NCBI GenBank assembly: GCA_013336285.1
Contig: JAAXTX010000001.1
Location: 20,201-84,200 of the forward strand
Reading direction: 5' to 3'
Source of the DNA: Candidatus Moraniibacteriota bacterium
GTDB taxonomy: Bacteria > Patescibacteriota > Minisyncoccia > Moranbacterales > UBA1568
DNA: 64,000 bases
Part shown: piece by piece, positions 9,584 through 25,607 of the stretch
How the letters are laid out: each line of letters begins with the position of its first letter
Position numbering within the stretch: the first letter of the stretch is position 1
Notes under the pieces: model-generated
Seen by the model: only the letters and a program-made list of their open reading frames with translations
What the model was told of the DNA's origin: nothing
Databases searched by the model: none
Made by a program: the position numbers and the translations under genes

Positions 9584-10290
9584 ACGGAAAACACCCCCTC
9601 TCCGGAAGCCGGTACCGCCTCCGGCGAATCGTCGTCGCATCTTTTCGTCAGTTCCCGTCTCCATTCGATCAAACCCATGGTCGCGAGCACCAAAAACGCG
9701 GCATAGAGCAGGGACACGAATCGCACTTCCTTCACCGCATACAGCCATATGCCGATCACGTCCACGGCGATCCACAGATACCAGCTGTCAACGACCCTGA
9801 ATATCATGAGCATCTGGGCCGCGAAACTCATCACGGTCGTCACCGCATCGAGATACGGGAACGACGCGGATTCCGGAAAGACCGACGGCCACCACGTATT
9901 CACATGCGCCATGAACCAACCGAGAGCGATCGTCCCGATAAGCACGAAAGCGGCGGTAAAGGAACGTTCCAGTACGGTTCCTTTCCGAATGAGTGATTCG
10001 TCGGACTCATCCTTCTTTCCTTTGCCGACTTTTGCCCAAAACCACCAACCGTAAAAACCGGATACGAGATAATAGATCTGTTCCACGAAATCCGAATACA
10101 GGCGGATTTGAAAGAAGAGCGCGCCATACAGTACGACCGCGACGATTCCGACCGGCCAATTCAGGATATGTTTCCTTGCCACTAACCAGACTGCCGCAAT
10201 GTTGAGAATCGTCCCGAAAAACTCAAGGTAACTCATCGGATAGCCGAGAACCGAAAAAATAATGTTGTCGATACTGAAGAATGAAAGCAT
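9580..10290 (-). CDS. pnuC: nicotinamide riboside transporter PnuC
   Basis: 236 aa, 7-8 TM helices, conserved PnuC motifs (NWPVGIVAVVLY, WWFW). It sits immediately upstream of nadR and is translationally coupled to it. Confidence 0.85.
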   Translation of the reverse strand: MLSFFSIDNIIFSVLGYPMSYLEFFGTILNIAAVWLVARKHILNWPVGIVAVVLYGALFFQIRLYSDFVEQIYYLVSGFYGWWFWAKVGKGKKDESDESLIRKGTVLERSFTAAFVLIGTIALGWFMAHVNTWWPSVFPESASFPYLDAVTTVMSFAAQMLMIFRVVDSWYLWIAVDVIGIWLYAVKEVRFVSLLYAAFLVLATMGLIEWRRELTKRCDDDSPEAVPASGEGVFSV

Positions 10291-10379: not shown

Positions 10380-10420
10380 ATTGTTAGTGTATTATACACA
10401 CTATATAAATGATGTCAAAT
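10380..10420 (-). promoter_or_regulatory. consensus sigma70-type promoter (-35 TTGACA, 16-nt spacer, -10 TATAAT) with overlapping palindromic operator TAGTGTATTATACACACTA, driving pnuC-nadR-nrtR
   Basis: Minus-strand reading is ggaTTTGACAtcatttatatagtgtgTATAATacactaac. The 40-nt core is almost identical to the cassette at 25331-25380. The palindrome half-sites TAGTGT/ACACTA overlap the -10 element, a typical repressor position. Confidence 0.55.
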
Positions 10421-10513
10421 CCTCAGCTTTCAAACATCAAAAAAACCGGCGACTCATCATGCAATTTCGCACGATCTGTCGCCGGAACTCACTTTCTCGA
10501 GACGCTCTCAACG

Positions 10514-11182
10514 TCAGTAATAGGCATCCAATTCGCAGGTGTTGGGCATAACCTCCTGTATTGCCGTAAACACCACCGTATCGGCAATCTGTTTCGGAGA
10601 GATGAACCTCACGACCTTGGAACGATATTCGTTTACCATATCTTCCGAAAGACCGTCCCATTCCCTTGTTTCCACCGGACCCAGGAGAAAATCGCACACA
10701 GATAACTCGCCGGCCCTCCCTTCAACGGCGTTGATACTCTTGCCCAGGTTATGTAAAAGCGTGAATGCGCCTGAATAAAAGGGTGCGCCCGGCAATCCCT
10801 TCTTTACGCACTGCCCGAGCATATTGATGATCCTCCCGCCATGAGACATGAATGCCTTTGCGGAAGTGATCGCATAAACATGAGCATCCAGGAACGGCCG
10901 TATCGCAAGGTACCCGCCGAAATCAAAATTGTCGCTCTCAAGAAACGGGATGGCGGCCGTCACCATGAGATCGAAGTCCCTCAGGTCGTCAAACAATCCG
11001 GAAAATAATACTTTGACTTGCTCCATATCCCGAAGGTCGCAACATATGCCCTTACCGGGATTTTCCGGCCTGAACGTATGGAAATACGTCCAGACAACAT
11101 CATACCCAGCCGCATGAAGCGCTTTCACGATCGCACTCCCGATATCGCTTCCACCGCCGATCACCAACGCTTTTTTCTGCTT
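10514..11182 (-). CDS. Rossmann-fold short-chain dehydrogenase/reductase-like protein
   Basis: N-terminal KKALVIGGGSDIGSAIVKALHAAGYDV dinucleotide-binding motif. Start set at the MKQKK internal Met that has an upstream SD. Confidence 0.55.
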   Translation of the reverse strand, partial: KQKKALVIGGGSDIGSAIVKALHAAGYDVVWTYFHTFRPENPGKGICCDLRDMEQVKVLFSGLFDDLRDFDLMVTAAIPFLESDNFDFGGYLAIRPFLDAHVYAITSAKAFMSHGGRIINMLGQCVKKGLPGAPFYSGAFTLLHNLGKSINAVEGRAGELSVCDFLLGPVETREWDGLSEDMVNEYRSKVVRFISPKQIADTVVFTAIQEVMPNTCELDAYY

Positions 11183-11367
11183 CATCTCAAGTTCTCCGTT
11201 TTCGTTTATAATGAGCCTGCTGAAATATTGACTGTAAAAATTACACCATTGATGGTTTCGTGTCAATGTCTATCGTCTATCGTCTCTTCTCCCATCCACC
11301 TCATTTTCTCCGTCTCCCGACCGCCGTATCCCGCCCGACAGCCCGTTCCTTCCGACTTCGCGAAGAT

Positions 11368-11412
11368 ACGGGGATAAAACAACGCCTCGTATCGTAATGA
11401 TGCGAGGCGTTT
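11368..11412 (-). terminator. rho-independent terminator downstream of the purA-like gene
   Basis: Minus-strand AAACGCCTCG-catcattacgata-CGAGGCGTT followed by GTTTTATCCCC. Confidence 0.5.
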
Positions 11413-11436
11413 GAGCGAGGAGCCGTTTATCGTCCC

Positions 11437-12882
11437 TCACAGAAAGAACTTCTGATCCCCGAACGGTCCTACGGAAACCAAGCCGATCGGCATACCGGCC
11501 CCCTTTCCGGACCCGATGAAGCCGAGATACCTACGTGCATTCGAATGCAGACTCCAGGGAAACCTTGCCAACGAGATATCCGTGTTCCATCCCGGAAACT
11601 CCCGAAATTCGAGAGGCCGGCAACGGAACAGCAGTTCCGTGAATCGGGAACGTTCATCTTCATTCCTTTCCGGATCACATATGAGATCCGTTATCCTTAT
11701 CGTCCCATCACGCTTGCGGTGCCATTCGAAGTACCGGTCAAGTTCGACAGCATGGTAATCCCCTTCGCGACAATCCACCTCAAGGGTGTACGACACGCAC
11801 ACCCTTATGACCGGGAACCCCGAAAGTCTGTCCAGATTCGTCACGGCAAGCATCCCTTGTCGATGATTCAGGGACAGCGCGTACCGCGTAGCCAACGTAT
11901 CGAACCACCCGACACGGAACGCCCCCTGCCAAGGATTATGGCCGTTGAACGTTTCTTTGAGATGCCGTGACAGCCCCGGTTCCTCGGTCACGAACGGTCC
12001 GGCACCATGACGATGGGCATACGCTCGCACCACGTTCAACTTCCTTACGGTCGCCTTATCATGCTCCGCTTCCGAGATCAACCGATCGGCATTGGACATC
12101 GTACTGTCGGTTTTCGTCACATGAGGGAAAAAGCCCCCCTTATGATCAAGCAATACTCCCTGCGCCCCCTCGAACACGACTCCGTTCCGAAAATCCGGCC
12201 CGCGAGAGACGATGTTTTCCCTGAACGTTTCTCCGAGGGCGCGATACCCGTCAATAAGACGGTTCTGGTCCATATCCCTCAGAAATTTCTCCAAGGCCGT
12301 CATCGCTCCTTCATGACGATTTTCTGCCGCAAGTTGTTCCGCCTGGTCGATTTTCAGGGACCAGAGGAAACGTATCTTGCGAGAAACGACGTCACTCGTC
12401 AAATCCCCCATTCGGAGCATCTGCGAAGCGAACAGTCTCGAATCGCGGACGGCTTCCCCGACCCCCATTCCGACGCTCCCATGACGATTTTCACCACGAA
12501 CTGATTCCCTCATCTGATTCAGCAACTGATGAAGCGGCGTCACGACGATGCAATCAGGATGGATCGAAATCCGTTCCGATGCGTCGGGCATCCCCTTCCT
12601 TTTGAGGACATTCAGCTCGTCTTGAAGAGTCGCCGGATTCGTCAGCATGTATTCCGAGAGGTATGTCCTCGTTCCCGGAACGAACGACCCCGATCCGACC
12701 TGCGAGAAGCAATGCCATTTCCCCTCCCGTATGAGGACATGGTGAGCCGCCTGCGGTCCGCCATTATAGCGGACCACTTCCCTACTCTCGTTCGACCTGA
12801 CCAGAAAGTCGACGACCGATCCTTTCCCTTCGTCCCCGAATCCCGCGCCGGCCACTATGAACGATGTCTTTTCCACGATCAT
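11437..12882 (-). CDS. adenylosuccinate synthetase (PurA)-family protein, divergent and longer than canonical PurA
   Basis: N-terminal P-loop GAGFGDEGKGSVVDFL matches the PurA GDEGKGK motif. 481 aa. Its start overlaps the upstream gene's stop (ATGA). Confidence 0.6.
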   Translation of the reverse strand: MIVEKTSFIVAGAGFGDEGKGSVVDFLVRSNESREVVRYNGGPQAAHHVLIREGKWHCFSQVGSGSFVPGTRTYLSEYMLTNPATLQDELNVLKRKGMPDASERISIHPDCIVVTPLHQLLNQMRESVRGENRHGSVGMGVGEAVRDSRLFASQMLRMGDLTSDVVSRKIRFLWSLKIDQAEQLAAENRHEGAMTALEKFLRDMDQNRLIDGYRALGETFRENIVSRGPDFRNGVVFEGAQGVLLDHKGGFFPHVTKTDSTMSNADRLISEAEHDKATVRKLNVVRAYAHRHGAGPFVTEEPGLSRHLKETFNGHNPWQGAFRVGWFDTLATRYALSLNHRQGMLAVTNLDRLSGFPVIRVCVSYTLEVDCREGDYHAVELDRYFEWHRKRDGTIRITDLICDPERNEDERSRFTELLFRCRPLEFREFPGWNTDISLARFPWSLHSNARRYLGFIGSGKGAGMPIGLVSVGPFGDQKFFL

Positions 12883-13814
12883 TCCTCCCGATTTTCGATG
12901 GTTTCACGAAACGTTTCCAATATTCCCATGGCGTCCTGAAACGCGTCCGTACGTCTTGTCGAACCGAAACTCATCTCATCGCTCAACATGAAATTGCGAT
13001 AACCCATTTCGCCAAGCATGAGAAGGTCGGCGAGGTCGGCGAGTGAAACCTTCCGGCTTGTACCGAAAGATTCCAACAGTCTCGATGCGGCGATAGCGGT
13101 AGGGTCGGCTTCCACGATGGAGCGAAGGGCGTCGAACATGGCGAACGTATCATCCCGGATATTCTCGAACAGATCGTCCCTTGCCGCCATAAGTCTCACA
13201 TGTCCGCCATATTTTGGATATTCGTTCTTTACGAACGAGAGCCCTTTCGACGATTCGATCTTGGCGATGATCCTCGCCTGAGGATCGAGTTCGAGCAATT
13301 CGCGCAGATCGTTTTCCTCCTCGACGAATGACAACATGTAATTCCTGATTCCGAGTTCCTTCGCGGCCAGAACGTATGCGCGGTCTTCGTCGGTCAGATA
13401 CCCCGCGATACGGAGATTCCTTCCCCGTATGTTCACCGACTGTCCGGCCCCGACCGCTTGAAGCGGCGGCGGGTCGACATACACCCTGTTCCCCGAGACA
13501 CTCCTGATGAAAGTTCCCTGTTGAGAGCCGCGAAAACTGATTTCCGCCGGTATATCGACTTCTATCTCGTGATTGAGAACGATGTCGCCGAATGTCGGCA
13601 CGGCCCACGAAACGATACGAAGCTGCCTCCCCTTCAGGTCGACATACAAGGGCTTGCCTCCCATGACCGCGAGCAGCCGTCTCAACGTCTCCTTGGGATC
13701 AAGCGGCGACCTCGCACCGACGTTGAAACGCGCGGCGGTCAGAGTCCCGTTTGCCGCGATTATGCCGAGAGCATGCTCAAGATGCGGAGGTGGTAATGTC
13801 GCGAAAATTTCCAT
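12879..13814 (-). CDS. pyruvate-kinase-like / HpcH-CitE-like TIM-barrel protein (PEP/pyruvate-domain superfamily)
   Basis: N-terminal region (ATLPPPHLEHALGIIAANGTLTAARFNVGARS) resembles the PK-like barrel N-terminus. 311 aa. Assignment is superfamily-level only. Confidence 0.4.
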   Translation of the reverse strand: MEIFATLPPPHLEHALGIIAANGTLTAARFNVGARSPLDPKETLRRLLAVMGGKPLYVDLKGRQLRIVSWAVPTFGDIVLNHEIEVDIPAEISFRGSQQGTFIRSVSGNRVYVDPPPLQAVGAGQSVNIRGRNLRIAGYLTDEDRAYVLAAKELGIRNYMLSFVEEENDLRELLELDPQARIIAKIESSKGLSFVKNEYPKYGGHVRLMAARDDLFENIRDDTFAMFDALRSIVEADPTAIAASRLLESFGTSRKVSLADLADLLMLGEMGYRNFMLSDEMSFGSTRRTDAFQDAMGILETFRETIENREE

Positions 13815-13879
13815 TTTTTATCTCCCTGTTATTGATTTGTTCTTGCTTTTTAAAAAAACGGTCCCGATAAATCGGACCC

Positions 13880-13912
13880 GATAATATACACGGAATCATT
13901 AATAATGTCAAT
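13880..13912 (-). promoter_or_regulatory. consensus sigma70-type promoter (-35 TTGACA, 17 nt, -10 TATATT) for the PK-like/purA-like sub-operon, followed by CCCGATAA direct repeats
   Basis: Minus-strand aaaagaTTGACAttattaatgattccgtgTATATTatcgggtccgatttatcgggac. Two CCCGATAA copies lie just downstream of the -10. Confidence 0.5.
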
Positions 13913-13931
13913 CTTTTATAAGGGGAATCAT

Positions 13932-13972
13932 GCAAAAAAATAAAAGGGGTGAAGCGATTTCGCCTCACCCCG
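13932..13972 (-). terminator. rho-independent terminator after the Nudix gene
   Basis: GGGGTGAAGCG-attt-CGCCTCACCCC hairpin followed on the minus strand by TTTTATTTTTTTG. Confidence 0.5.
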
Positions 13973-13982
13973 TGTGTTCACC

Positions 13983-14885
13983 TTATACCCGGATATCCAG
14001 CATTCCCAGCGCCTGTTCAAAAAGCTTCCTATGATGAGAATCCTTGAACGACGCTCCAGAAAACTCACGGCGTGACAAAACGACGACTTCTTTGACTTCA
14101 CTGCCATCCCCCTTGAACATTCCTTTCACGTCTGCGACGGAAAGCGTCTTTCCGATCTCGAACACCGCCATATAGGCAGTCGTCATGGAAACCCGCTGAA
14201 ATCCGTACGCGATATCGGCATCGCTGGTAGGTGTAAAGACGGTGCCCAGGAGTTTCAGTCGGCATTCCGACTTCTCACTTCCCTGAAACTCCGCCCGCAC
14301 CTCGATATGATCGGGGTGCGGATTTCCATCATCGCGAGGAAAGGAATCCCGCGGTTTCAACCGCAGACCGATCTCTTCGAACCCCTCCCGGATGGCACTT
14401 TCCGCCGCTGACTCTATCGAGACTCCCTTCTTGTCGATGAAACCTCCGACGAGGGCGAGCGGGCCACTTCCGGCTTCTCCCTTCCGGATACAGATGAAAT
14501 AAAGATTCCCATCGCTATCCCGAATGAACGGAAGAATATCCGCCGCGACGCCCGGCTTATGATATGCCAGATGACCGACTGCATCGGCGACATACAGATA
14601 GGATCCGTTGCCGATATCGTACCGACTGACTCGTACCGCATCGCCGAAATGACCATATCGTCCGACTCCTGCATAAGCATCGGTCGCCAAACACAGCGAT
14701 ATCGACTCCCGACCACTCGGATTCGCAATCAATACCGGATCGTACTGGGACGCTTTCCCCGAATCCGAAATGAATTGTTCCAGAAGGGGCGGGCAATGAT
14801 TCGCCGCAGACAATGTTTCCAAACTGTCAAACGGACGTTTCATCAGTTCCCCCCTATACCCATAAAAGTAAAGATGTTCCTTCAT
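13983..14885 (-). CDS. Nudix hydrolase (ADP-ribose pyrophosphatase-like) with N-terminal extension
   Basis: Canonical Nudix box GGFIDKKGVSIESAAESAIREGFEEIGL. Start chosen at MKEHL, which has an AAAGGAG SD and an ATGA overlap with the ARH stop. The ORF-track start at 14960 would overlap ARH by 78 nt. Confidence 0.7.
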   Translation of the reverse strand: MKEHLYFYGYRGELMKRPFDSLETLSAANHCPPLLEQFISDSGKASQYDPVLIANPSGRESISLCLATDAYAGVGRYGHFGDAVRVSRYDIGNGSYLYVADAVGHLAYHKPGVAADILPFIRDSDGNLYFICIRKGEAGSGPLALVGGFIDKKGVSIESAAESAIREGFEEIGLRLKPRDSFPRDDGNPHPDHIEVRAEFQGSEKSECRLKLLGTVFTPTSDADIAYGFQRVSMTTAYMAVFEIGKTLSVADVKGMFKGDGSEVKEVVVLSRREFSGASFKDSHHRKLFEQALGMLDIRV

Positions 14886-15988
14886 GATTCGCTCCTTTGT
14901 TTTTCCGATAGGGCTTCCGCCAGTTCGGTCGCCGTTTGTATGACTGCTTCCTTCCTCCATAGTCCGTCGATCAGGTGCTCATGCCCTTCGAAAAGAGCCA
15001 TGCCATTCCGAGCCCCGAGCAAGGCGCCAACCATCGATCCGTTCGAATCGGTATCACCGCCGGCATTCACCGTATCGAAGAGCGTCACGATACTCCGCGG
15101 ATTCCGCAGGAACATCGCGTACGTGAACGGGATCGAGTCAAATGCGTAGCATGACCCTTTTCCGAGCGCCGTGGACAATTCTCCGATGTTCATATGCTCC
15201 CAACACCGTGTTTCGAGCATCCATCTCAACCGATCCGAAATCCTATCGGTAATGACATCATCAGAAAGAATGTTCTCACCGACAAGACACGCATCGATGA
15301 CGATTTCCAGGAATCGCGTTTCGAAGTCCTCGTCCGGAAGGGTAAGGCTGGCGAAAACCGCGTAAGCCTGCGCGAGTCCGGACGCCGCTCCCATTTGGGT
15401 CGCATGAGTCATGAGTCCGACTTTGATCATTTTGGCGTCAAAGGCCACACGATACTCGGAAAATCTCTTCTCCATATCGGCGACACTGTATCGCCTGCTC
15501 AGCCGTTGATACGCCGATGCCAGAATCATTCCGAAGGGAGCCGCTTTCATGGCGACACCGTTTCCGGCACCGTTCTCGGTTCCGGACTCACTCCAGTGAA
15601 TCCCCGCTCGGATCTTCTCCAACGCCTTCCTCGTACTCCCGCCCATTCCGCTTATCAGCATGCAGGAATCTGACACGAGTCGACGCGAGATATCATCGCA
15701 GTCAATAAGATAGCTTCCCGGGAATCCCCTTCCTACGCGTCTTATGACATCGATTATCGACTCCGCGCATGCCTGCGTATGACACCAGTCGTCGGTCCAC
15801 ATTCCGGCCTTCATTCCCTCGCCGTGAAACCGGTGGTCTTTCGGCGGATCGACATAGCCCCTGATCCGTCCGAACCTTTTCGCGATCGTTTTCGCGGAAT
15901 ATATTTCCGCCGGCATCCCGAGCGCATCGCCGATAGCGACAAAAAGCATCGCGGCTTTCATGCGGTCTTTCATTCCTTCCAAACCCAT
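14882..15988 (-). CDS. ADP-ribosylglycohydrolase (ARH/DraG family)
   Basis: 368 aa with family hallmarks: N-terminal AIGDALGMPAE, GMWTDD and a C-terminal DTDSNGSMVGALLGA metal-binding motif. Confidence 0.8.
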   Translation of the reverse strand: MGLEGMKDRMKAAMLFVAIGDALGMPAEIYSAKTIAKRFGRIRGYVDPPKDHRFHGEGMKAGMWTDDWCHTQACAESIIDVIRRVGRGFPGSYLIDCDDISRRLVSDSCMLISGMGGSTRKALEKIRAGIHWSESGTENGAGNGVAMKAAPFGMILASAYQRLSRRYSVADMEKRFSEYRVAFDAKMIKVGLMTHATQMGAASGLAQAYAVFASLTLPDEDFETRFLEIVIDACLVGENILSDDVITDRISDRLRWMLETRCWEHMNIGELSTALGKGSCYAFDSIPFTYAMFLRNPRSIVTLFDTVNAGGDTDSNGSMVGALLGARNGMALFEGHEHLIDGLWRKEAVIQTATELAEALSEKQRSES

Positions 15989-16124
15989 ATCCCTCCCTGT
16001 CTTTTGTTGTGAAAAAACATGTTCAGCCCTCTTATTACGGAGCCGAAAAACCGGAATCGAACCGCTTCCATTCCGCTTTTTCGGCGGGAAAGATATTTAC
16101 CTTTCCCGCGAAACCCTTCATGGG

Positions 16125-16829
16125 CTAAAGAACTATCTGTTCGACGATCAACGCACCGCTCTGTTGCATGGAAAACAGCGCGAACAGTTCGCTGAGATCT
16201 CGCGGGTGCACTCCGGGCAAATCATAGGTCACGACCGCATCTATCGGGATGATGACCTGCAGGTCCGACGGAATGAACCCTCTCGTCCGCAGATTCAGGA
16301 TCGCAAGTACCGTTTCCATCACGCAGATATCAGTGCATATGCCGCCGACAATGAGTGTCTTGATCTGACTCGCATTGATCCATTCGATGAATCCGGTAAG
16401 TTTGCCGATATCTCCCACTATGCCGTTATTGCAATCTTTGCGAAGCAGGAATACGAAACAGCTTTTCTCGGTCCACCTGAGCGGCTCGATAATGGCACTT
16501 TCGGGAGTTCCCAGAACGCAGTGTTCCGGATAGACCCCTTCCCGCTGACCAGCCTCATGACCTTCGGCATACATGACGACCGAGGCTTTGATCCAGTTCA
16601 GATATTCCAGCAATCGGACGCATTCCGCGACCATCGCCGGTACCTCACTGTCATCTTTCGGAGGGGACAACGGCCCGCAACCCGGCGTACAGAATCCGTC
16701 CACCAAGTCGATGAACGCGCCCCCTACCGTATTCTCAAGGTGGCGGATATCGTATGCGTCGACGATATTCAGTCCGACTCCATGCCGTTTCGCGAGTTCG
16801 CGAAACTTTTCCGCCTTTTTACTCTGCAT
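16125..16829 (-). CDS. isochorismatase-family cysteine hydrolase (PncA-like nicotinamidase candidate)
   Basis: Catalytic-Cys region TLIVGGICTDICVMETVLAI typical of the isochorismatase/nicotinamidase fold. Start at internal MQSKK with an AAGGAGAAG SD. Confidence 0.6.
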   Translation of the reverse strand: MQSKKAEKFRELAKRHGVGLNIVDAYDIRHLENTVGGAFIDLVDGFCTPGCGPLSPPKDDSEVPAMVAECVRLLEYLNWIKASVVMYAEGHEAGQREGVYPEHCVLGTPESAIIEPLRWTEKSCFVFLLRKDCNNGIVGDIGKLTGFIEWINASQIKTLIVGGICTDICVMETVLAILNLRTRGFIPSDLQVIIPIDAVVTYDLPGVHPRDLSELFALFSMQQSGALIVEQIVL

Positions 16830-17011
16830 ATTCTTCTCCTTTTTTTGTGATACGTTTTTTGATACACGGTTATTTTTTAGGAACCCTGAACGGTCACGGG
16901 ATAAGCCCAAGCTACGTCGGAAAAGACATTCCCCCGACAAAAATTGTCTTGAATTGGAAAATAATGGGGACCGATGCATTCGATATCGGTCCCCGACCTT
17001 TCAAAACGTAC

Positions 17012-18514
17012 TCATAACCGCTTCGTCTTTCCGGAACGATTTTTTCCGGGCGCTCCAGGCAGCGTACCGCTCACTTTGACGATGGCTCCGGCTTTCGCAT
17101 CGGAGAATCCCTCCAAAGCCCTCCTTACCTGACCCTGCCTCAACTGCGTCTGACCGCGCTCGCCCATATCGACGACATACTGGTCCAGACCCGCTCCCGA
17201 GGAGAGAGCTATGGCTCCGAGCATGACGTCCACGATCGCGCGCGGATCATCGATAACAAGGATATTCTCATCCGGTATGACGCCCGCCCACTGATTCCGA
17301 ATCAGCGTGTCATCATACCCGGCATACCGGTCGACGGCTTCGGGCCGTTCATCCGGATCGAACTCGAATTCCCCGACAAAGACGTTCGCCGCGTTATTCG
17401 GATTTTCCACATCTGAAGAACCGCCTCTGACCGATACGACCGGGGCGATACCTTCGAAATGCGCGATTTTCCCGTTTATCTCACTCTCGACCCTGAACGG
17501 AGTGGCCTCTCGCGATGGTTCATGATACGCGAAGTTCTGTACGAACACCTCGTACTTCCCCTTCGGAGCACGCCCTTTCGGCCACCGGGTATTCTCGATC
17601 GGCTTGGTCGTCTCACCATGAACGTTCCTGTCCACGTCGAGTTCGCCGCCGCAGCGCGAATGCTTGTGACTGAAATAGATGTGCTCCCCGCTCGGCGCGA
17701 TGACATGCAGATCGAGATCGTTCCGGTTGTCCCATATCAGCGAGAAGCGGACATCGACACCTTCATGCATGGCACCGGCCTCAAGAACCCTTTTCCTTAT
17801 CTCCTCGTCGATATCGGTCTTGCGTTCCTGCCAGGTCTTCTTCGGATAGATGAAGAACACATCGTATTTCTCCTGGAGTTTCGCGAATACCGTCCCAGAA
17901 TCCAAGTCTTCCGGCAAAGAGTCGCCGATAAGTCGCTTTACCTGATCCTTTGATATCTTGGGGTAGAATCCCTCGTCCCCAAGGAAAAACAGGATGCCTT
18001 TCTCTCCGCGCTTGAGGCAGTCCAACTCCGTATGCGTCGCGTAGTAATAGGCGAGAAGCTCATAGGACTCCTGTCCCGTTCCGCCGCCGCCTTCCTCAAG
18101 CCAGATATTTCCGAGTACTTCGTCCAGCCGGTTGTCCGACTCGAACTGCCCTACCTGAATCGGGGCCTTGTCTCCGCAGGTCGCATCACCGACGGCGGCA
18201 AAACTGATGACCGGATGTTGCACCCACCCTTTCATGATCAGCTGCCCGATAAACATCGGTAGCTTTCCGTAGATGACCTTCGCATCATCGCCGCGCGACC
18301 GCGTATCATCCATCACGACCGCGATCGGTTTGGTGTTCGGATGTTCCGCCGAATCACGACACTCCCGTATCTTCCCCTTGATGTTTAACAAGGGGTGCAC
18401 TTCGCGCTGGGTCGGTTGCGTCGGATCGCTCGCATACCCACGAAAACTGAAATGATCGTTCAGGGAAGAACGCTGACGTTCCCCTACGTCTCCATCGTAA
18501 TGATTATCACCCAT
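17012..18514 (-). CDS. vWA-like domain protein with C-terminal beta-rich domain of unknown function
   Basis: MIDAS-like DDTRS, plus vWA-like GGGTGQESYELL and ILFFLGDEGF segments in the N-terminal half. The C-terminal ~230 aa are uncharacterised. Paired with the J-domain kinase upstream (30-bp gap). Confidence 0.4.
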   Translation of the reverse strand: MGDNHYDGDVGERQRSSLNDHFSFRGYASDPTQPTQREVHPLLNIKGKIRECRDSAEHPNTKPIAVVMDDTRSRGDDAKVIYGKLPMFIGQLIMKGWVQHPVISFAAVGDATCGDKAPIQVGQFESDNRLDEVLGNIWLEEGGGGTGQESYELLAYYYATHTELDCLKRGEKGILFFLGDEGFYPKISKDQVKRLIGDSLPEDLDSGTVFAKLQEKYDVFFIYPKKTWQERKTDIDEEIRKRVLEAGAMHEGVDVRFSLIWDNRNDLDLHVIAPSGEHIYFSHKHSRCGGELDVDRNVHGETTKPIENTRWPKGRAPKGKYEVFVQNFAYHEPSREATPFRVESEINGKIAHFEGIAPVVSVRGGSSDVENPNNAANVFVGEFEFDPDERPEAVDRYAGYDDTLIRNQWAGVIPDENILVIDDPRAIVDVMLGAIALSSGAGLDQYVVDMGERGQTQLRQGQVRRALEGFSDAKAGAIVKVSGTLPGAPGKNRSGKTKRL

Positions 18515-18543
18515 CTTCTTCGACTCCTTTTTTTGATTGTTGT

Positions 18544-19647
18544 TTACGGTAATACGAATTCCAGAAACCTGATCGGCCCCCAGAGTTCGACTCTCAAATC
18601 CTGTAGCATTTTATGCATCTCCCAGGCGTCCTGTGCCCGCTGAATCGGACTTTCCCTCACGAGAAACTCCAGAAATCTTGCGAATCCCGGGGTCGTCCCG
18701 TGTGGCATCCGGTTCGTCTTCACGTTCCCACCGAGCGCGTAAATCATGCTTTTCCCGACAGCGTATAGGTCCGATGACGGCAACGGCGGTTTTCCTTCGG
18801 CGACTTCCGACGGACTGTAATCCTCGTTAAGCACCTTGAACCGCTCACCTGCTTTCTGGCCACCGATCGCATAACTCCAATCGACGAGCGAAAGATTATG
18901 ATCGCGAGGTCGGATCATGACATGCGCCGGCTCGATATTGCCATGAATGACTCCTCGGGAATGAACATACCCTACGACACTCAGGAGACGCGTAAGCATC
19001 CATGCGACGTGTTGTTCAGGTATACCGTTCCGATAACGGTCCGACTCCCTGATAGCCACAAGGTCGTAATAGCCGTCCAGCATCTCCAGGATAAGAGCCT
19101 GACGTCCGTCCTCGGCCTTGAAACGGTCGATCATCATCGGTAGATGCTTGTCCTGTGCTCCCGGATTTTCCTTGAGTCTTCTCAGTGTCCGGATCTCGTT
19201 TTGCATGAGATCGTTGTCCGCCGGATCATCGACCAGCTTCAGCACGATCTTCCGCTCGGTCATCGCGTCGATGCCGTAGTACACGGTCGAAAGATCCCCC
19301 TGGGCCAGACGCGAGCTGATCTTGTACTCCCGATCTCCGACACGGATGGAAAAACTCTCTTCCGCCGTCTCATCGGGAACCGTGGAGCCGTAGACGCCCG
19401 CCTCGATTCTCACCTTTGCCTTCTCAAAGAGCTCCGAGAGCCTCTTGAACGCCCCGTCAGCATCGCTTTTTCTCCGTGAATTCCGATCCGGATGAACCGT
19501 TTTCGATAGGTTTCGATACAGGCGTTTCACTTCGGTCAATTTGTCCCCGACGCCCGTAAGCATACCGAAAATATCTTCCGGTCCGGTCGCGGAACCTATC
19601 CTCTCGGAAAGGATTTCGAATTCCGTTTCACTGACCATATCCAACAC
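18544..19647 (-). CDS. J-domain (DnaJ-like) fused to a divergent Ser/Thr protein-kinase-like domain
   Basis: N-terminal J domain with an HPD motif (KRLYRNLSKTVHPDRN). Kinase fold follows: glycine-rich GDLSTVYYG, VLKL lysine, catalytic loop IHGNIEPAHVMI (HGN in place of HRD) and DWS in place of DFG. Confidence 0.55.
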   Translation of the reverse strand: MLDMVSETEFEILSERIGSATGPEDIFGMLTGVGDKLTEVKRLYRNLSKTVHPDRNSRRKSDADGAFKRLSELFEKAKVRIEAGVYGSTVPDETAEESFSIRVGDREYKISSRLAQGDLSTVYYGIDAMTERKIVLKLVDDPADNDLMQNEIRTLRRLKENPGAQDKHLPMMIDRFKAEDGRQALILEMLDGYYDLVAIRESDRYRNGIPEQHVAWMLTRLLSVVGYVHSRGVIHGNIEPAHVMIRPRDHNLSLVDWSYAIGGQKAGERFKVLNEDYSPSEVAEGKPPLPSSDLYAVGKSMIYALGGNVKTNRMPHGTTPGFARFLEFLVRESPIQRAQDAWEMHKMLQDLRVELWGPIRFLEFVLP

Positions 19648-19797
19648 CTCCTTCTCTCTTTCGTTGTTAAAGTTCCCCTGAAACTACTACATATGCCGAC
19701 CAGGCGCAAGGGATACCCCCACGACTCACCGGCATACGGATAATAACAAGGTGCCGGACCGGAAAAATATGAACTATTTTCCCGGTCCGACGAAAGG

Positions 19798-22248
19798 CTA
19801 TTCAGAATTCCTGTACAGCCCCAACCGTTCTATGTACTCGACGACACCCCGAGGGACGAGATCGTCTATCGATTCACCTCTTGCCAGACGTTCCCGTACC
19901 ATGGTTCCCGACCCTATGATGGGACCCATACAAATCGATTCGGAAACGGGAGGCAATTCTCCGGGAGATATCTCGTGACCCGGACGATCGACGACCACCC
20001 ACTGCAGCGTCTTCCAGATGACCGGACCATGCGTCCAGGTCCTCTGGATATCGGACTTCCCATCAGCCCCCCTGGTGACAAGGTCGGAACCGACCGCGAA
20101 CCAGATATCGGCATCGGGATACCGCTCCGCATACCGCTCCGACAGATGATAACTCGGCGTATATGTCTTATCCCGGATGTCGGTCAGGTCCACGACGACA
20201 CGGTCCAGACCACCGAACGCGATTTCCGACATGACACCGCGATGCATCGGATCGATGACATTCGCAGACGCCTTGTCAGGGCGTTCCCCGCACGGCATCA
20301 CGATTACGAGATCGAACATTTCCGTGAGTACCTTCGCTATGCCGACATGGTGGTTACACGGCGAATTGAAGCTGCCTCCATAGACGGCGATTCTCCGCTT
20401 TCCTCCGTTCCAAGTGCGACCGGCAAGCAGATCCCGTTTCAGACGTTCGTACCGCAACGTCCGCATCACACCGAGCATCGATTCCCGGAAGTCATATCCG
20501 AACGATCTGCGGGACACCTTTATGATAGGTGGGGCCTGCACCCGTTTGCGGACGGAACCGATAAACAGCTCCCAACACCGCTCAAGGTCTTTGACGAACG
20601 TTTCCTTGGTCGGGAACAGTCGGTCCAGCGTTCCTGTATCGAGTTTCATTTCCGCTTCGAGCCGGCCGGTCGCATACAGGTTCAACACCCATTCCGGTCC
20701 CTTCAGGAATTCCACGAACGCCCGCACCAGCTCGTCATGATACCCGCGACGATGCAGGTTCCCATAATCGAACGGGTCGGCCCCCGTCTCTGAAAGCTCC
20801 GCCATCGGCGCTATCGTGAAACATCGATCCGGAATGACCGGGTTCGGGAATACCTTGCGGTTCATATGATCCGCCAACTGGTATACCTCACGTTTCACGA
20901 GATCGCCTATCGGAAGGACGAATCCTGCGATATCGCCGTACATGGTCCCATACCCGAACGCGAGCTCAACCTTGTTCCCGTTTCCGATGAACACCCCACC
21001 GATTTCCTCTGTCTTTGCGGCAAGGATCTCCATGCGTACACGTGCCTGGATATTCGAGTATGCCCGCGTACCGGGTTTACAACCCGCCTTTGCCGCGATC
21101 GCATCGACAAGTTCGCCGATAGGAATCGTTTCGACGGGAACATCCAAACGACGAGCGATATCATACACTAATCCGAGTGTTTCATCGGAAGTATTCTCCG
21201 TCGGCATCGTGACCAGGAACACATTTTCTTTTCCGAGCACCTTGACCGACAATGCCGCCGTAGTAGCGGAATCGATACCGCCCGAGAGCCCAATGACCAC
21301 CTTGCGCATCCCGGATGGAAGCGTTTGGAACTGTTCATAAAAGGCGAAACTCAGGGCATTATACAGATCGGACGTATCGTCCTGGTCCACCGAAGCTATC
21401 GATGGCATATTATCCGCGAAGGTGACATCGGATGTCCCGGAAACGTACGTTCCGGACACGTGCACGATCTTCCCCTGCGAATCATACACGGTCGAACATC
21501 CGTCGAACGTTATGATGTTCTTTCCGTTGTTCTGTATCCCCACGTTGTTCACGTAGATGAGCGGAACCTTGCATTCCGCAAGCAGCATGCGCGCGACCTC
21601 GTTTCGGACCAGGTTCTTATGCCAGTCGTACGGCGAAGAAGACAGGTTGATTATGATGTCCGCCCCTTCCTCCACCAGACGGGCTCCCGGATTGCAGGCA
21701 TGATGCGTATGCCACATGTCCTCGCATATGATGATTCCCAAACGGATCGTCTTTCCCTGGAAAGTCATCTTGATCGGACGAAACGACAGCGGGTCGCCCG
21801 ATTCGAACGATTCTTCCTTCCTGGAGAAGAAATGCCTGTCATCCTCGAATACGCCGTAGTTCGGATGATTCGTCTTGATGACCTGACCGAGCATTACCCC
21901 GTCCCGGACCGCGATCGCCGCGTTCGATATCCTTCGCCGCCCGTTCTTTCCAGTCTTCCCACTTGCGGCAACCAGACTTCCGAACACCACGACGATGTCC
22001 TTTCCGACCGTCGATTCGCGGATCCGATCGTTCCACTCGAGCACGTCGTCGACGAACCCGTCGTTCCCGAACACATCCCCAAGACAATACCCGGGCACGC
22101 TCAGTTCGGGAAACACGATCAGAGGGATGCCGCGCTTCTCGGCGTCGGCGATTTCACGGACGATATGCTCACCGTTCACCCGTGAATTCCCGGGAACGAT
22201 CTTCACCTGGCAGATCGCCGCCTTGAGTCCGTTCAACTTCCTATCCAT
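19798..22248 (-). CDS. nadE: glutamine-dependent NAD+ synthetase (CN-hydrolase + NAD synthetase domains) fused to a C-terminal NadD-like NaMN/NMN adenylyltransferase domain
   Basis: N-terminal nitrilase-like domain (PELSVPGYCLGD). Central PP-loop SGGIDS ATP-pyrophosphatase. C-terminal RIAVYGGSFNSPCNHHVGIAKVL nucleotidyltransferase (H/T-x-G-H-like) domain. 816 aa in a single ORF. Confidence 0.75.
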   Translation of the reverse strand: MDRKLNGLKAAICQVKIVPGNSRVNGEHIVREIADAEKRGIPLIVFPELSVPGYCLGDVFGNDGFVDDVLEWNDRIRESTVGKDIVVVFGSLVAASGKTGKNGRRRISNAAIAVRDGVMLGQVIKTNHPNYGVFEDDRHFFSRKEESFESGDPLSFRPIKMTFQGKTIRLGIIICEDMWHTHHACNPGARLVEEGADIIINLSSSPYDWHKNLVRNEVARMLLAECKVPLIYVNNVGIQNNGKNIITFDGCSTVYDSQGKIVHVSGTYVSGTSDVTFADNMPSIASVDQDDTSDLYNALSFAFYEQFQTLPSGMRKVVIGLSGGIDSATTAALSVKVLGKENVFLVTMPTENTSDETLGLVYDIARRLDVPVETIPIGELVDAIAAKAGCKPGTRAYSNIQARVRMEILAAKTEEIGGVFIGNGNKVELAFGYGTMYGDIAGFVLPIGDLVKREVYQLADHMNRKVFPNPVIPDRCFTIAPMAELSETGADPFDYGNLHRRGYHDELVRAFVEFLKGPEWVLNLYATGRLEAEMKLDTGTLDRLFPTKETFVKDLERCWELFIGSVRKRVQAPPIIKVSRRSFGYDFRESMLGVMRTLRYERLKRDLLAGRTWNGGKRRIAVYGGSFNSPCNHHVGIAKVLTEMFDLVIVMPCGERPDKASANVIDPMHRGVMSEIAFGGLDRVVVDLTDIRDKTYTPSYHLSERYAERYPDADIWFAVGSDLVTRGADGKSDIQRTWTHGPVIWKTLQWVVVDRPGHEISPGELPPVSESICMGPIIGSGTMVRERLARGESIDDLVPRGVVEYIERLGLYRNSE

Positions 22249-22387
22249 ATATGCCTCCTCTTTTTCCGAATGATTGTATAAAAGAACTTCCTTCTCGGCA
22301 CGGACCCGGACTCTTCCGGATCCCTGTTAAAAAGGGATGCGACGGGGAGGATATTCCTCCCCGAGGCATCATCGACATTTCACGCTT

Positions 22388-23488
22388 TCAAATCCTTACT
22401 GTCGACCTGACCATGTCCGACTGCTGATACGCCAACCCTGCCGCGAGCACATCGTATTCGTAACGGAACGCGACATCCTCGAGATCCGATTCGGAACGGA
22501 GCGCTTCCGCAAAGACGTCCGACGTGACATCGAGATCGATACAGAATACCTGGCTCGAGCCGCCCATCGTCCCGCAGAGAGTCGGATCCGACGAACTGAA
22601 CAGCTTGCCGAACCGCATCGTGGCGATATGTCCGTTTACCAGGACATGCGCCGGTTCGAGATGCCTGGCTACGATTTTCACGTCAAGCCCGGTTTCCTCA
22701 CCCAGTTCCCGGATAGCGGCATCCATCGGCGACTCGTAGTCTTCTATCGCTCCGCCGGGAATGGCGAGCCACCCTGGAAAATCCTTTTTCGACGGTTTTC
22801 TCCTGCCGCAAAGGATCATCTTTCCGTTCCCTCTCGATGAACGGCATCGGACGACGATATCCACCGTCTGCCTTCCCGGTATGAACGGCGTCCCCGCATC
22901 GGCGAGCGCCTCGCAGATCATACTGAATCCGCCGAAACTTCCCATAAGCGCGATCGTGCCGGTAGCCGCGATCTTTGCGAACGATTCGTAATCATTTCCC
23001 AGGATCGCGTTCCTCAGATCGGTCGCGTGATACGGAAAACGAAATTTCTCGGCCAGATCCTTCTCCGGATTGATGACGGACAGCGAGCCCGGTATGCCGC
23101 CGCGACTCCTGAATTCGGAAAGGATCTGCTCCTCGTTGCCGGTGACGTAATCCGTCACCCGCTCGAATCCGGGAAAGCCGGTCGTATGCGCCCACCACTT
23201 ATCGAAATCACCGGGAAAATCCTGCAGGTGCACGAAGGAGACTCGCTCGGAATCGATGCCTTCGTTGATCAGGCTCCACAGGATCATCTTCTCGCGGAAT
23301 ACCGCCAGGAGCGGGTGTTTCGACACGCCGACCTCGTAGCAACTCCCGATGCCGATCACGAGACTATCCACCTGTGTCAGGAGCCATACCATGAAAAGGA
23401 TATGCCCCTTATGCGGCGGACTGAATCGTCCGATGACGTATGCCGTCCTTCCGGTCGGTCCGGAAACGATATGAACCCCGTCTTCCAT
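22388..23488 (-). CDS. nadM: bifunctional NadM-type NMN adenylyltransferase / Nudix ADP-ribose pyrophosphatase
   Basis: N-terminal GRFSPPHKGH nucleotidyltransferase motif. C-terminal canonical Nudix box GGAIEDYESPMDAAIRELGEETG. Confidence 0.8.
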   Translation of the reverse strand: MEDGVHIVSGPTGRTAYVIGRFSPPHKGHILFMVWLLTQVDSLVIGIGSCYEVGVSKHPLLAVFREKMILWSLINEGIDSERVSFVHLQDFPGDFDKWWAHTTGFPGFERVTDYVTGNEEQILSEFRSRGGIPGSLSVINPEKDLAEKFRFPYHATDLRNAILGNDYESFAKIAATGTIALMGSFGGFSMICEALADAGTPFIPGRQTVDIVVRCRSSRGNGKMILCGRRKPSKKDFPGWLAIPGGAIEDYESPMDAAIRELGEETGLDVKIVARHLEPAHVLVNGHIATMRFGKLFSSSDPTLCGTMGGSSQVFCIDLDVTSDVFAEALRSESDLEDVAFRYEYDVLAAGLAYQQSDMVRSTVRI

Positions 23489-23606
23489 ATGAGCATTCTC
23501 CTTTTGGTTGCGATCCGATCCTTCCTAAGATCAGGTCTTTTTCTGAAAAAGAACTCATCAAGGGAAAGGTGCCGCGGGAAAATGTTCTTCCCCGCGGCCC
23601 GTTTCG

Positions 23607-24950
23607 TCATACAACTACAACCTGTTTTTTTGAGCCCTCTTCTCCAAATATTTTCTTGAAGAGGGCGACCCTATCCGCCGGGCCGGTCGCTTTTTCCGGA
23701 TTATCGGAAAGTTTCACCGCAGGCACCCCGTTCGCTTCTGATACCTTACAGACCATGGAAAACGGACGGAATAAACCGAATGCCCCGTCATTCCTCGGCC
23801 AGAGTCCGCGACAGTCGTTCCCGACGAGCGTCCCCCAGCCATATGACAATGTCCCGACCGCTGACGCGTTCTCACGAGAACAACCGAGCATGGTGTCAGT
23901 ATCGAGTCCGTCGCTCGGTAAAATCATCTTCGTCATCGGATCGACGCCGTGTCGCTTCCACCACTCAACGGTGACCCGGACAGCCTCGTTCGGCTCCATC
24001 GAGTCCGGACGGACTCCTTTCCAGTCCCTCGCGAACGACGCGGGCGCATGCCTATAGAAGTGAGCGGTCCCATACGTATCCGGAAGAAGGATACTCATAT
24101 CGGGGCCGAAGTAGTCGTACCACTTCTGTGACATGGTGAATGGCGCTTGAAATATCCTATCGTGATCATTCCCCGCCAGACACCCTTCGATCATATACAG
24201 CTCGTGAGCGTTCGTACCTTTCGGATTCGCGCTCCCATGCTGCATGGCCAGAAGGACATTCGAAGTCCCGAGACACTGCGACGGAAGCATTTCCGACATG
24301 TACCTCATCACGATCTCCTGGAAAAATCGGCTCTGTCTCCGCCTCGTATCGAAAAGGATGAAGGAAAGCGCGCGTTCCTCACGCAACGCCTTCGCCTTTT
24401 CGAAAAGCCTGGCGACCATACCCGTGTATATCGACAGAATCTCCGATGAGGAAAGCTTCGCGTTCAGGATCAGATGGTAGTAATAAAGCTCCGAAACGAT
24501 CACCATCGCAATTATTTCCCAGAACGTCACCTTCCATGAGGGACCGGTGAAGGTCAGAACATACCCGCCTTCCTGTTTCTCCAGTATGAATGGAGGCAAG
24601 ACCGGACGAGACATCTCTTCCAGAAAATCATCCGACCGGATCAGGCGAGTTCGCCCGTCACTTCCTGTCATTCCTGCCAGGAACGACCGTTCCGCCGGCG
24701 TAAGACAAAGAGCCCTTGCCGCCTCAAGTTGTTCACGAAGCACATCTTCCGGGATGATGTCGGCCAGACGGATATACTTGTCACGAATGATAAGCTTGAA
24801 GGTCGTCTCGACATCCCTGTATTCGGCATGATCGAAATAGAATACGGCCATGAACCATTTGTACACGTCCGTATCGATCAGGCTTTTGACGATCGCTTCC
24901 CCGTTCGGGATACAGAATATATCCCGCAGACCGAGCCCTTGTAATTTCAT
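23607..24950 (-). CDS. pncB: nicotinate (or nicotinamide) phosphoribosyltransferase, PncB-like
   Basis: N-terminal LIDTDVYKWFMAVFYF matches the LLDTD.YK motif of type II PRTases of the NAPRT/NAMPT family. 447 aa. Confidence 0.65.
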   Translation of the reverse strand: MKLQGLGLRDIFCIPNGEAIVKSLIDTDVYKWFMAVFYFDHAEYRDVETTFKLIIRDKYIRLADIIPEDVLREQLEAARALCLTPAERSFLAGMTGSDGRTRLIRSDDFLEEMSRPVLPPFILEKQEGGYVLTFTGPSWKVTFWEIIAMVIVSELYYYHLILNAKLSSSEILSIYTGMVARLFEKAKALREERALSFILFDTRRRQSRFFQEIVMRYMSEMLPSQCLGTSNVLLAMQHGSANPKGTNAHELYMIEGCLAGNDHDRIFQAPFTMSQKWYDYFGPDMSILLPDTYGTAHFYRHAPASFARDWKGVRPDSMEPNEAVRVTVEWWKRHGVDPMTKMILPSDGLDTDTMLGCSRENASAVGTLSYGWGTLVGNDCRGLWPRNDGAFGLFRPFSMVCKVSEANGVPAVKLSDNPEKATGPADRVALFKKIFGEEGSKKQVVVV

Positions 24951-25154
24951 GCTTTCCTCCTTTTTCGGTTGTAATTGATATGACTTTATAAAGAACCCTT
25001 CACCCCGAGAGGTCTCGGGATGGGAAGAGCGGGACCGATACGCATCCGTCCGGCCATTCCGCCATACTTTTCATCCCTTGCCTGAGCCAAAATTCGACGC
25101 AGAAGCAAGATTGGACGATAACATATATGAACAATGCTGTCAATTATCTCAATG

Positions 25155-25210
25155 GTCCGTTACTTAGTGTTGTATAAACAATATATATCAGTTATTACTG
25201 ATTGTCAAGA
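25155..25210 (-). promoter_or_regulatory. consensus sigma70-type promoter (-35 TTGACA, 17 nt, -10 TATATT) for the pncB-nadM-nadE... operon, with an operator-like ACACTAAGTAA half-site at the start site
   Basis: Minus-strand reading is tcTTGACAatcagtaataactgataTATATTgtttatacaacactaagtaacgg. Confidence 0.5.
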
Positions 25211-25330
25211 AATACATTCCGTTCCGTTCCCGGATACGAAACCGGGCAAGGGAACAGATGCGACGGCTATCTCCCTAAAGTACCGCAACAAGGTTATTCT
25301 TAAGCCATATTCCCCGTTCAATCATATCCG

Positions 25331-25380
25331 GATTTGACAGGATTTATATAGTGTGTATAATACACTTAGTAAGTTCACAA
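25331..25380 (+). promoter_or_regulatory. consensus sigma70-type promoter (-35 TTGACA, 16 nt, -10 TATAAT) with overlapping palindrome TAGTGTGTATAATACACT, driving the isochorismatase-vWA-PP2C-kinase operon
   Basis: gatTTGACAggatttatatagtgtgTATAATacacttagtaag is nearly identical to the pnuC promoter at 10380-10420. A third related motif, TACTTAGTGTGTTACTTAC, lies at 25508-25530. Confidence 0.55.
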
Positions 25381-25607
25381 GGGAAAGGACGGACAGGAAG
25401 ACGAAGGAGTCACTCAGACAACCGACGGGACCTATTTCATTCCCGGTATCGCTGCCTAAACGACTATTCCTCTCCCATACCGATGCCTTGGCATCGTATC
25501 TCCTTCCCTACTTAGTGTGTTACTTACATTATATAAGCATCTTTACAACTGGATAGGCAGACGAACAACATGGCCTGTTCGAAACGTCAACAAAAAAGGA
25601 GACTACG

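Follow-up and report, generated by a model that had tools for sequence, protein, structure and literature searches.

NrtR motifs, as described by Rodionov et al. (2008; PMC2330246), are mostly 21-bp palindromes with a conserved GT-N7-AC core that either overlap promoters or fall between promoter and start codon, and NrtR regulons include pnuC-nadR-nrtR (as in Streptococcus), pncA/pncB divergons, nadM and nadE, with autoregulation of the repressor gene itself. Here we describe a stretch of 64,000 nucleotides (nt) from an ultra-small Candidatus Moraniibacteriota bacterium (Moranbacteria; contig JAAXTX010000001.1, positions 20,201 to 84,200; the ‘window’ in what follows), in which a 19-nt palindrome, TAGTGT-N7-ACACTA, probably serves as the operator of an NrtR-family repressor at three NAD operons. 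One of these carries an unexpected four-gene ‘cassette’: a nicotinamidase-like (PncA-like) protein, a von Willebrand factor A (vWA) domain protein, a PP2C-family phosphatase and a Ser/Thr-type protein kinase fused to a β-propeller.

The cassette recalls several described systems. The TerY-P triad of Anantharaman et al. (2012), whose kinase carries a C-terminal zinc ribbon, or an OB fold in the form with a defence role (Gao et al. 2020), has been proposed to act as a phosphorylation-dependent switch (PMC11090510). In the ADP-ribosylglycohydrolase (ARG)-centred systems of Iyer et al. (2022; PMC9503650, section 3.8), vWA ‘chaperones’ occur under a repressor of Nudix (NrtR-like) or WYL type. Phage NAD salvage uses NadV together with NadM or NadR (PMC7824862, PMC9503650), and Baniulyte et al. 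(2017; PMC5725501) describe boxA/Nus-factor elements beyond the rRNA operons. Both vWA-PP2C-kinase triads and the control of NAD salvage by NrtR are already known, but had not been linked, and full-text literature searches and broad surveys of phage NAD systems yielded no mention of a nicotinamidase-vWA-PP2C-kinase module.

A shared palindrome at three NAD promoters

The window holds two copies, and no more, of the 33-nt core TTGACA-N4-TTATATAGTGTGTATAATACACT: one on the minus strand (10418..10386) and one on the plus strand (25334..25366). None is expected by chance, and shuffled sequence gave no match. With the GGAT that precedes TTGACA in both, the repeat extends to 37 nt, of which 33 are identical, N4 being the part that differs. 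Each copy scores 12/12 as a TTGACA-16-TATAAT promoter, and the -10 hexamer is contained within the 19-nt palindrome TAGTGT-GTATAAT-ACACTA. Allowing up to two mismatches, TAGTGT-N7-ACACTA has four sites in the 64 kb (O1 to O4, Table 1), against a mean of 0.33 in shuffled sequence and with no shuffle reaching four, and all of these are confined to the two NAD intergenic regions. A fifth, weaker palindrome, with three mismatches, overlaps a conserved nrtR-proximal promoter, such that nrtR can, as judged from its promoters, be transcribed both from P(pnuC) and from a weak promoter of its own.

Three consensus sigma-70-type promoters have a predicted operator across their -10 element and start site: those of pnuC-nadR-nrtR, of pncB-nadM-nadE/D, and of the cassette (PncA-like, vWA, hairpin, PP2C, kinase). 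The remaining site, O4, lies in the cassette leader, possibly in a ‘roadblock’ position, and has a counterpart in two other Moranbacteria (L002, L068), in L005 and L012, and in further loci.

The original prediction had proposed one promoter-operator cassette serving two operons, with perfect hexamers at 16-nt spacing and a palindrome across the -10 in both copies. The two copies, their hexamers and the overlapping palindrome all stand, and are not there by chance; a scheme of two operons gives way to one of three promoters and four to five operators. The divergent minus-strand genes, whose identity that account had missed, are pncB-nadM-nadE/D. What had been called related ‘half-sites’ (25155-25210 and 25508-25530) do mark real sites, the former correctly placed at the start of the divergent promoter, TTGACA-17-TATATT; rather than halves, both are complete, slightly degenerate palindromes with no more than two mismatches.

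The presumed repressor is the 226-aa product of the third gene of the pnuC operon, for which an NrtR-like Nudix/winged-helix identity had been suggested and which holds up in profile searches. Pfam recovers PF21906 (NrtR_WHD) at 6.1e-27 (94 bits, cut-off 27) and PF00293 (NUDIX) at 3.4e-12, whilst matches in the PDB include the NrtR-family regulator AraR (5bs6, 5.9e-49) and Shewanella oneidensis NrtR (3gz5, 1.6e-37); on this homology the protein is a genuine NrtR. Its Nudix box is degenerate (RVLSEK), as would be expected of a sensor and not of a hydrolase. That it binds these sites and responds to ADP-ribose would follow from its membership of the family.

We then looked across genomes, gathering 79 species-level loci by a genome-contig scan with kinase alignment, of which 69 had enough upstream sequence for gene order to be counted. 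All but two of the 69 (67 loci) retain the gene order PncA-like > vWA > PP2C > kinase-propeller, among them loci of Bradyrhizobium, Desulfosudis, Accumulibacter and Chthonomonadaceae. Within the fetched locus nrtR is found in 35/69 and pncB in 36/69, with nrtR directly upstream of the cassette in 20; PncB is the most frequent neighbour, phages included, and one Parcubacteria genome has the arrangement nadK-nrtR-[cassette]-pncB-nadE.

The palindrome recurs at these orthologous loci. Of 68 loci, 38 have a site in the 450 nt that precede the PncA-like gene, at a density of 2.17/kb as against 0.083/kb elsewhere (an approximately 26-fold enrichment), and in L002 and L068 a promoter-operator of about 45 nt is identical to that of the window despite proteins that are only ~72% identical. 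Across 81 loci, 117 of 172 palindromes (68%) lie within 650 nt upstream of PncA-like, nrtR, pncB, pnuC or nadM genes, and several of the remainder precede nadA or nadK (L003 and L008, for example); both the comparison with orthologous loci and the wider motif search, which the original prediction had called for, favour it. Over dozens of genomes the arms are conserved and the 7-nt spacer is variable, which is the pattern that a protein-binding site would be expected to show. In Desulfosudis, Agitococcus, Thiodictyon and Accumulibacter, where nrtR is divergent, the intergenic region holds a variant palindrome of the type TTAGTTGC-N5-GCAACTAA, which appears to be specific to these Proteobacteria/Desulfobacterota lineages.

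Table 1. Genes and sequence elements of the locus, ordered by position in the window
Feature	Positions	Strand	Remarks
Intrinsic terminator closing the pnuC-nadR-nrtR operon	7798..7815	-	
nrtR, Nudix-like sensor domain plus winged helix	7837..8517	-	Pfam and PDB matches; degenerate Nudix box
nrtR-proximal promoter TTGACG-18-TATGCT with degenerate operator TGCTGT-N7-ACACTT (~8531-8549)	8531..8575	-	conserved in L002, L068
nadR-type NMN adenylyltransferase / ribosylnicotinamide kinase	8588..9583	-	TIGR01526, 1.9e-64; match from residue 65 of the open reading frame
pnuC, nicotinamide riboside transporter	9580..10290	-	PF04973, 2.3e-50
Operator O1 (predicted), TAGTGTGTATAATACACTA	10385..10403	.	perfect arms; overlaps -10 and start site of P(pnuC); GT-N7-AC core
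P(pnuC)	10391..10418	-	-35 TTGACA 10418-10413, 16-nt spacer, -10 TATAAT 10396-10391; 12/12
nadE (glutamine-dependent NAD synthetase) fused to nadD-like adenylyltransferase	19798..22248	-	816 aa
nadM-Nudix, NMN adenylyltransferase / ADP-ribose pyrophosphatase type	22388..23488	-	family matches
pncB, nicotinate phosphoribosyltransferase family	23607..24950	-	NF003704, 2.4e-85
boxA-like element in pncB leader, TTCTTTATAAA	24985..24995	-	hairpin ahead of it; consensus from PMC5725501
Operator O3 (predicted), TAGTGTTGTATAAACAATA	25165..25183	.	overlaps P(pncB) -10 and start site
P(pncB), TTGACA-17-TATATT	25180..25208	-	11/12 promoter match
P(cassette), TTGACA-16-TATAAT	25334..25361	+	12/12 promoter match
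Operator O2 (predicted), TAGTGTGTATAATACACTT	25349..25367	.	overlaps P(cassette) -10 and start site; identical in L002, L068
Operator O4 (predicted), TAGTGTGTTACTTACATTA	25513..25531	.	in the ~240-nt cassette leader, 77 nt ahead of the ATG
Degenerate boxA-like element in cassette leader, CATCTTTACAAC	25538..25549	+	
Nicotinamidase-like (PncA-like) protein, isochorismatase fold	25608..26423	+	271 aa; D9/K156/C206 triad, D53/H55/H122 metal site
vWA protein, TerY/YegL-like	26472..27218	+	MIDAS-like D41-x-T-G-S45...T112...D148; conserved, disordered Ser/Gln-rich C-terminal tail
GC-rich terminator-like hairpin between vWA and PP2C	27236..27264	+	weak U-tract in this genome
PP2C-family phosphatase	27295..28173	+	PF13672 (PP2C_2), 1.4e-15
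Ser/Thr-type protein kinase (~1-270) fused to C-terminal β-propeller (~295-578)	28170..29906	+	578 aa; start overlaps PP2C stop
Terminator-like hairpin closing the cassette	29916..29945	+	

The cassette, its transcription and its surroundings

The first gene of the cassette, previously called simply an isochorismatase, does have that fold and can now be placed more closely as nicotinamidase-like: its product aligns to the solved nicotinamidases 29iv, 3pl1 and 2h0r, the catalytic triad and metal-site residues are invariant or nearly so in 20 family sequences, and the nicotinamidase WPEHC motif is invariant too. By its sequence it is a divergent subfamily with insertions. The vWA-PP2C-kinase triad is therefore embedded in an NAD-salvage operon.

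The gene calls made for the triad, and those for pnuC, nadR and nrtR, are upheld, the latter by family matches. For the vWA protein this required structure prediction and Foldseek, since sequence-only searches failed: no Pfam match was obtained, a PDB profile search returned only noise, and PF00092 was weakly touched by just three of 25 family members. The AlphaFold2 model has a pLDDT of 84 and its top Foldseek matches are exclusively vWA/integrin I domains (E ~1e-7), in line with the JGI annotation, YegL. Its metal-ion-dependent adhesion site (MIDAS), D41-V-T-G-S45 with T112 and D148, is invariant, with Thr in place of the first Ser. The C-terminal tail (27130-27218 in the window, residues ~220-248; SQSVSSQSQAVGTGGPSQ) is strongly conserved, with the consensus LAKLAxFVSQSVSSQSQALGTGGPSQ, and is predicted to be disordered (pLDDT < 50); it is a plausible substrate of both the kinase and the PP2C. 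A profile of the kinase finds MAP3K9 in the PDB (4.7e-5), and Foldseek likewise recovers kinase domains, whilst its C-terminal part is an all-β propeller; the best full-length Foldseek matches are to the kinase-WD40 region of LRRK2. The family is a large one, with 927 representatives (clusters at 50% identity) at E <= 1e-30 among 1.84 billion sequences, all of them unnamed.

How the cassette is transcribed turns on the hairpin between its second and third genes. The gap between the PncA-like and vWA genes has a median of 45 nt across loci; the hairpin that follows vWA has, in the window, a strong stem of 13 pairs and a weak tail, CTTATTGTAA. As this conserved terminator-like element separates vWA from PP2C, we infer co-regulation of PP2C and kinase from read-through, and the simplest reading would be a single operon with an internal attenuator, giving high levels of the PncA-like and vWA proteins and low levels of PP2C and kinase.

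A boxA-like motif, YTCTTTRAMAA, is present in 32 of 69 leaders and is 19-fold enriched over background in their last 150 nt, the copies in the window being degenerate. It stands 40-80 nt ahead of the PncA-like and pncB start codons, usually after a hairpin; the resemblance suggests an involvement of Nus factors, and the motif may be linked to read-through. Rfam found no known RNA element in the whole window at gathering thresholds, and none in the three leaders at E <= 1. A riboswitch in the 240-nt cassette leader was considered and dropped, as its folding is not significantly better than that of shuffled sequences (z = -1.39). Two cassette-leader hairpins show apparent compensatory changes between the window and L002.

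Copies of the cassette are also found on viral and prophage-like sequence. The block, often with PncB inserted, occurs in 100-470 kb IMG/VR viral contigs (L087-L108), and the huge phage LR745208.1 (L109, 204265-223950) has all four genes, with a NUDIX gene and ParB/GmrSD_N-like genes downstream of its kinase. A second huge phage, LR756511.1 (L110, 110944-130623), has vWA, PP2C and kinase, and no PncA-like gene was found within its 9-kb flanks. The cultivable Bradyrhizobium embrapense SEMIA 6208 and Bradyrhizobium sp. Leo170 (L064/L065) carry the cassette with a kinase that is ~42% identical, in a prophage-like setting of radical SAM, phage-type Dam methylase, RNase T-like exonuclease and HerA-like ATPase genes; an extra gene of ~125 aa sits between PP2C and kinase both there and in LR745208.1.

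In the closest relatives nrtR and the cassette lie side by side in divergent orientation, whereas in the window the two are separated by pnuC-nadR, with the second promoter-operator copy, and by a 15-kb minus-strand island. Because of this arrangement, and because the conserved nrtR-proximal promoter remains in place, we suggest that the second copy probably arose by duplication during the rearrangement that parted nrtR from the cassette. A LysM-CHAP peptidoglycan hydrolase gene and a tyrosine recombinase (phage-integrase family) adjoin nrtR, at 5403-7796 in the window and at 4205-6698 in L002, where nrtR faces the cassette directly; this would fit an insertion or rearrangement in the lineage of the window. 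Within the pnuC operon, the nadR ATG overlaps the pnuC stop codon (ATGA).

The minus strand between the two operator copies (10514-25000) is entirely an NAD/ADP-ribose island. From the pncB end it runs pncB, nadM-Nudix, nadE-nadD (followed by the hairpin 19753-19791 as the likely end of the operon), a DnaJ-domain Ser/Thr kinase (19647-18544), a 500-aa protein without assigned family, a nicotinamidase-like isochorismatase (16979-16125), an ADP-ribosylglycohydrolase (15988-14882), a 325-aa protein without assigned family, a pyruvate-kinase-barrel-like protein, purA and an SDR (short-chain dehydrogenase/reductase). Screening for families also took in the stretch from 10.5 to 19.6 kb, where two of the nine genes had no match. 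The island region thus offers two kinases and two nicotinamidase-like paralogues; recent duplication was rejected for both pairs, the nicotinamidase-like proteins having only a PEHCVxGTP motif in common and the kinases being unrelated beyond their fold.

A model for NAD-responsive control and its rivals

We propose a model for how these operons might respond to NAD turnover, in which the behaviour of the repressor is taken from the NrtR family. NAD cleavage releases ADP-ribose together with nicotinamide. When turnover is low, NrtR dimers would occlude the three promoters; a build-up of ADP-ribose would then cause NrtR to leave the DNA, and its release would jointly switch on the uptake and conversion of the riboside, the salvage of nicotinate, NAD synthetase and the deamidation of nicotinamide. 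Transcription would cover the nicotinamidase-like and vWA genes as a pair, and beyond the terminator-like hairpin presumably just some of the transcripts would extend into PP2C and kinase-propeller, which are translationally coupled, such that the signalling enzymes would be co-regulated at a lower level. We speculate that kinase and PP2C might act reversibly on the Ser-rich vWA tail, and so tune the nicotinamidase/PncB step; a phospho-switch of this kind, modulating the conversion of nicotinamide to nicotinate, is the most likely role for the triad, albeit a speculative one.

Taken as a whole, we think it likely that TAGTGT-N7-ACACTA is the operator of the NrtR encoded here, governing all three NAD operons and reaching the triad by read-through; NrtR homology and the orthologous palindromes lend support to the original suggestion that NAD-salvage genes and the triad share an NrtR-type operator. 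Several points weigh on the other side. The organism is an uncultured metagenome-assembled genome (MAG), known here from its sequence. Its NrtR scores 184 bits against the NCBIfam equivalog model NF050029, below the cut-off of 400, and on that score is a member of the family and not an equivalog of the curated seed group. At the threshold used, 30 of the 68 loci have no site within 450 nt, and no nrtR was found near the phage or Bradyrhizobium copies of the cassette, for which reasons we regard NrtR control as frequent and not obligatory. The PncA-like protein falls short of the Pfam PF00857 (13.3 against 27 bits) and NCBIfam NF008623 (23.8 against 174) cut-offs for isochorismatases/nicotinamidases, and the island has another nicotinamidase-like gene of a more canonical kind (16125-16979, 284 aa); the substrate of the PncA-like protein is accordingly uncertain. 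Lastly, a GC-rich hairpin with a T-rich tail is present in the vWA>PP2C spacer of 50 of 65 loci and in the PncA-like>vWA spacer of just one of 71, and could largely insulate PP2C and kinase from the NrtR promoter.

Were that hairpin an efficient terminator, NrtR would govern the nicotinamidase-like and vWA genes only, leaving PP2C and kinase to a separate source of transcription such as a promoter within vWA. The bias of the hairpin towards this one spacer speaks for such an arrangement. Against it, the spacer continues for just 20-40 nt past the hairpin and has nothing but a ribosome-binding site there, the plus strand from 26.4 to 27.3 kb yielded no promoter-like site, the window has a weak U-tract, the gene order is the same in 67 of 69 loci, and the boxA-like leader motif may favour read-through; we consider independent expression distinctly unlikely. 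Far less probable still, in our view, is that the palindrome belongs to a regulator other than NrtR, or that the repeat is a duplicated strong promoter with incidental symmetry. The -35 and -10 hexamers do by themselves explain about half of what the two copies have in common, and the pairing of NrtR with the palindrome is drawn from sequence comparison; set against this, the arms are kept across dozens of genomes around a variable spacer, the sites follow NAD genes and nrtR, and the GT-N7-AC core is that of the NrtR family (PMC2330246). Comparison with family models finds no helix-turn-helix domain in NadR, Pfam and NCBIfam reveal no other regulator gene in the pnuC, pncB or cassette operons, and loci from outside the candidate phyla radiation (CPR) show a different palindrome exactly where nrtR is divergent.

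A further alternative concerns what the cassette is for: its first gene might encode not a nicotinamidase but an amidase that serves the triad alone (with a protein side chain or a modified nucleotide as its target, for instance), the four genes and PncB forming a mobile conflict or counter-defence module that came under NrtR control in CPR bacteria only secondarily. The copies in huge phages, large viral contigs and prophage-like regions, all without nrtR, fit such a view, as do the missed family cut-offs of the PncA-like protein, its second paralogue in the island and the status of TerY-P-like modules as known defence systems (PMC11090510). The D-K-C triad, D/H/H metal site and WPEHC motif are nevertheless those of a nicotinamidase and do not vary, PncB is the commonest neighbour in phages as well, and PADLOC models of TerY-P are unmatched; this alternative strikes us as rather unlikely, if not to be dismissed lightly.

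We tentatively raise one broader idea, which we hold to be possible without thinking it probable: that the PncA-like, vWA, PP2C and kinase-propeller genes, usually with PncB, are a self-contained, horizontally mobile module common to CPR bacteria, scattered Proteobacteria and huge phages, whose Ser/Thr phospho-switch responds to the condition of the cell (such as the cleavage of NAD upon infection or contact with a host) and gates the recycling of nicotinamide into NAD; in cells it would be wired to ADP-ribose through NrtR, and in phages regulated so as to counter NAD-depleting immunity. Were this true, NAD salvage in bacteria would have its first dedicated layer of post-translational signalling.

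Comparison with described systems

The link between NAD salvage and the triad is not a quirk of one MAG, in that the four-gene block is found in about 70 species-level genomes, beside nrtR/pncB in about half of them, and also in huge phages. It suggests an undescribed phospho-control of NAD recycling, which, if the block is functional, would come under phospho-regulatory as well as transcriptional control; such recycling is critical both to genome-reduced, salvage-dependent CPR bacteria and to phages facing NAD-depleting defences. The analysis also offers a testable function for an uncharacterised vWA/kinase family, along with a defined set of predicted operators for NrtR in Patescibacteria.

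With TerY-P (PMC11090510) the cassette shares the order vWA - PP2C - Ser/Thr kinase and a TerY/YegL-type vWA domain with a MIDAS-like motif. It differs in that the modelled kinase ends in a β-propeller and not in a zinc ribbon or OB fold, the first Ser of the MIDAS is Thr, a nicotinamidase-like gene precedes the triad, and the genes linked to it are those of NAD metabolism and not of tellurite, restriction or CoCoNuT systems. PADLOC TerY models match neither the vWA protein nor the PP2C, the kinase giving only faint mad6 and PD-T4-6 matches, and membership in a known defence system is thus unsupported by PADLOC. The earlier description of a ‘TerY-P-type triad’ accordingly holds for gene order, domain types and MIDAS, and fails for the C-terminal domain of the kinase and the PADLOC models.

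Among NrtR-linked systems without a biosynthetic role, the nearest that have been described are the ARG-centred ones, in which an ADP-ribose-sensing Nudix-HTH (helix-turn-helix) repressor is placed over genes for phosphatases and a vWA protein, among others (PMC9503650), and the window island does itself hold an ADP-ribosylglycohydrolase gene. That gene is, however, 10 kb away in another transcription unit, and the core of those systems is ARG with rhodanese, calcineurin, HD or HAD phosphatase, without nicotinamidase-like, PP2C or kinase genes (PMC9503650). Large phages similarly carry NAD-rebuilding enzymes, presumably against NAD depletion, and the cassette, often with PncB, joins these in huge phages; PMC7824862 and PMC9503650 describe NadV/NadM/NadR, however, and not a deamidating PncA-like/PncB route coupled to vWA-PP2C-kinase. 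As for boxA (PMC5725501), the leader motif, 40-80 nt from the start codon, resembles the consensus, approximately GYTCTTTAANA; the copies in the window are degenerate, and the element is a candidate by its match to that consensus.

A close parallel is that of the NrtR regulons themselves (PMC2330246), with which the window shares a Nudix-like/winged-helix NrtR, 19-nt GT-N7-AC palindromes on NAD promoters and a predicted site at the repressor's own gene. No vWA, PP2C or kinase target is listed in that work, although its ‘nrtX-nrtY’ genes might include part of the cassette. What sets the present locus apart is the addition to such a regulon of a vWA gene and, presumably by read-through, of PP2C and kinase-propeller genes, in an arrangement that recurs in CPR bacteria and in some Proteobacteria.

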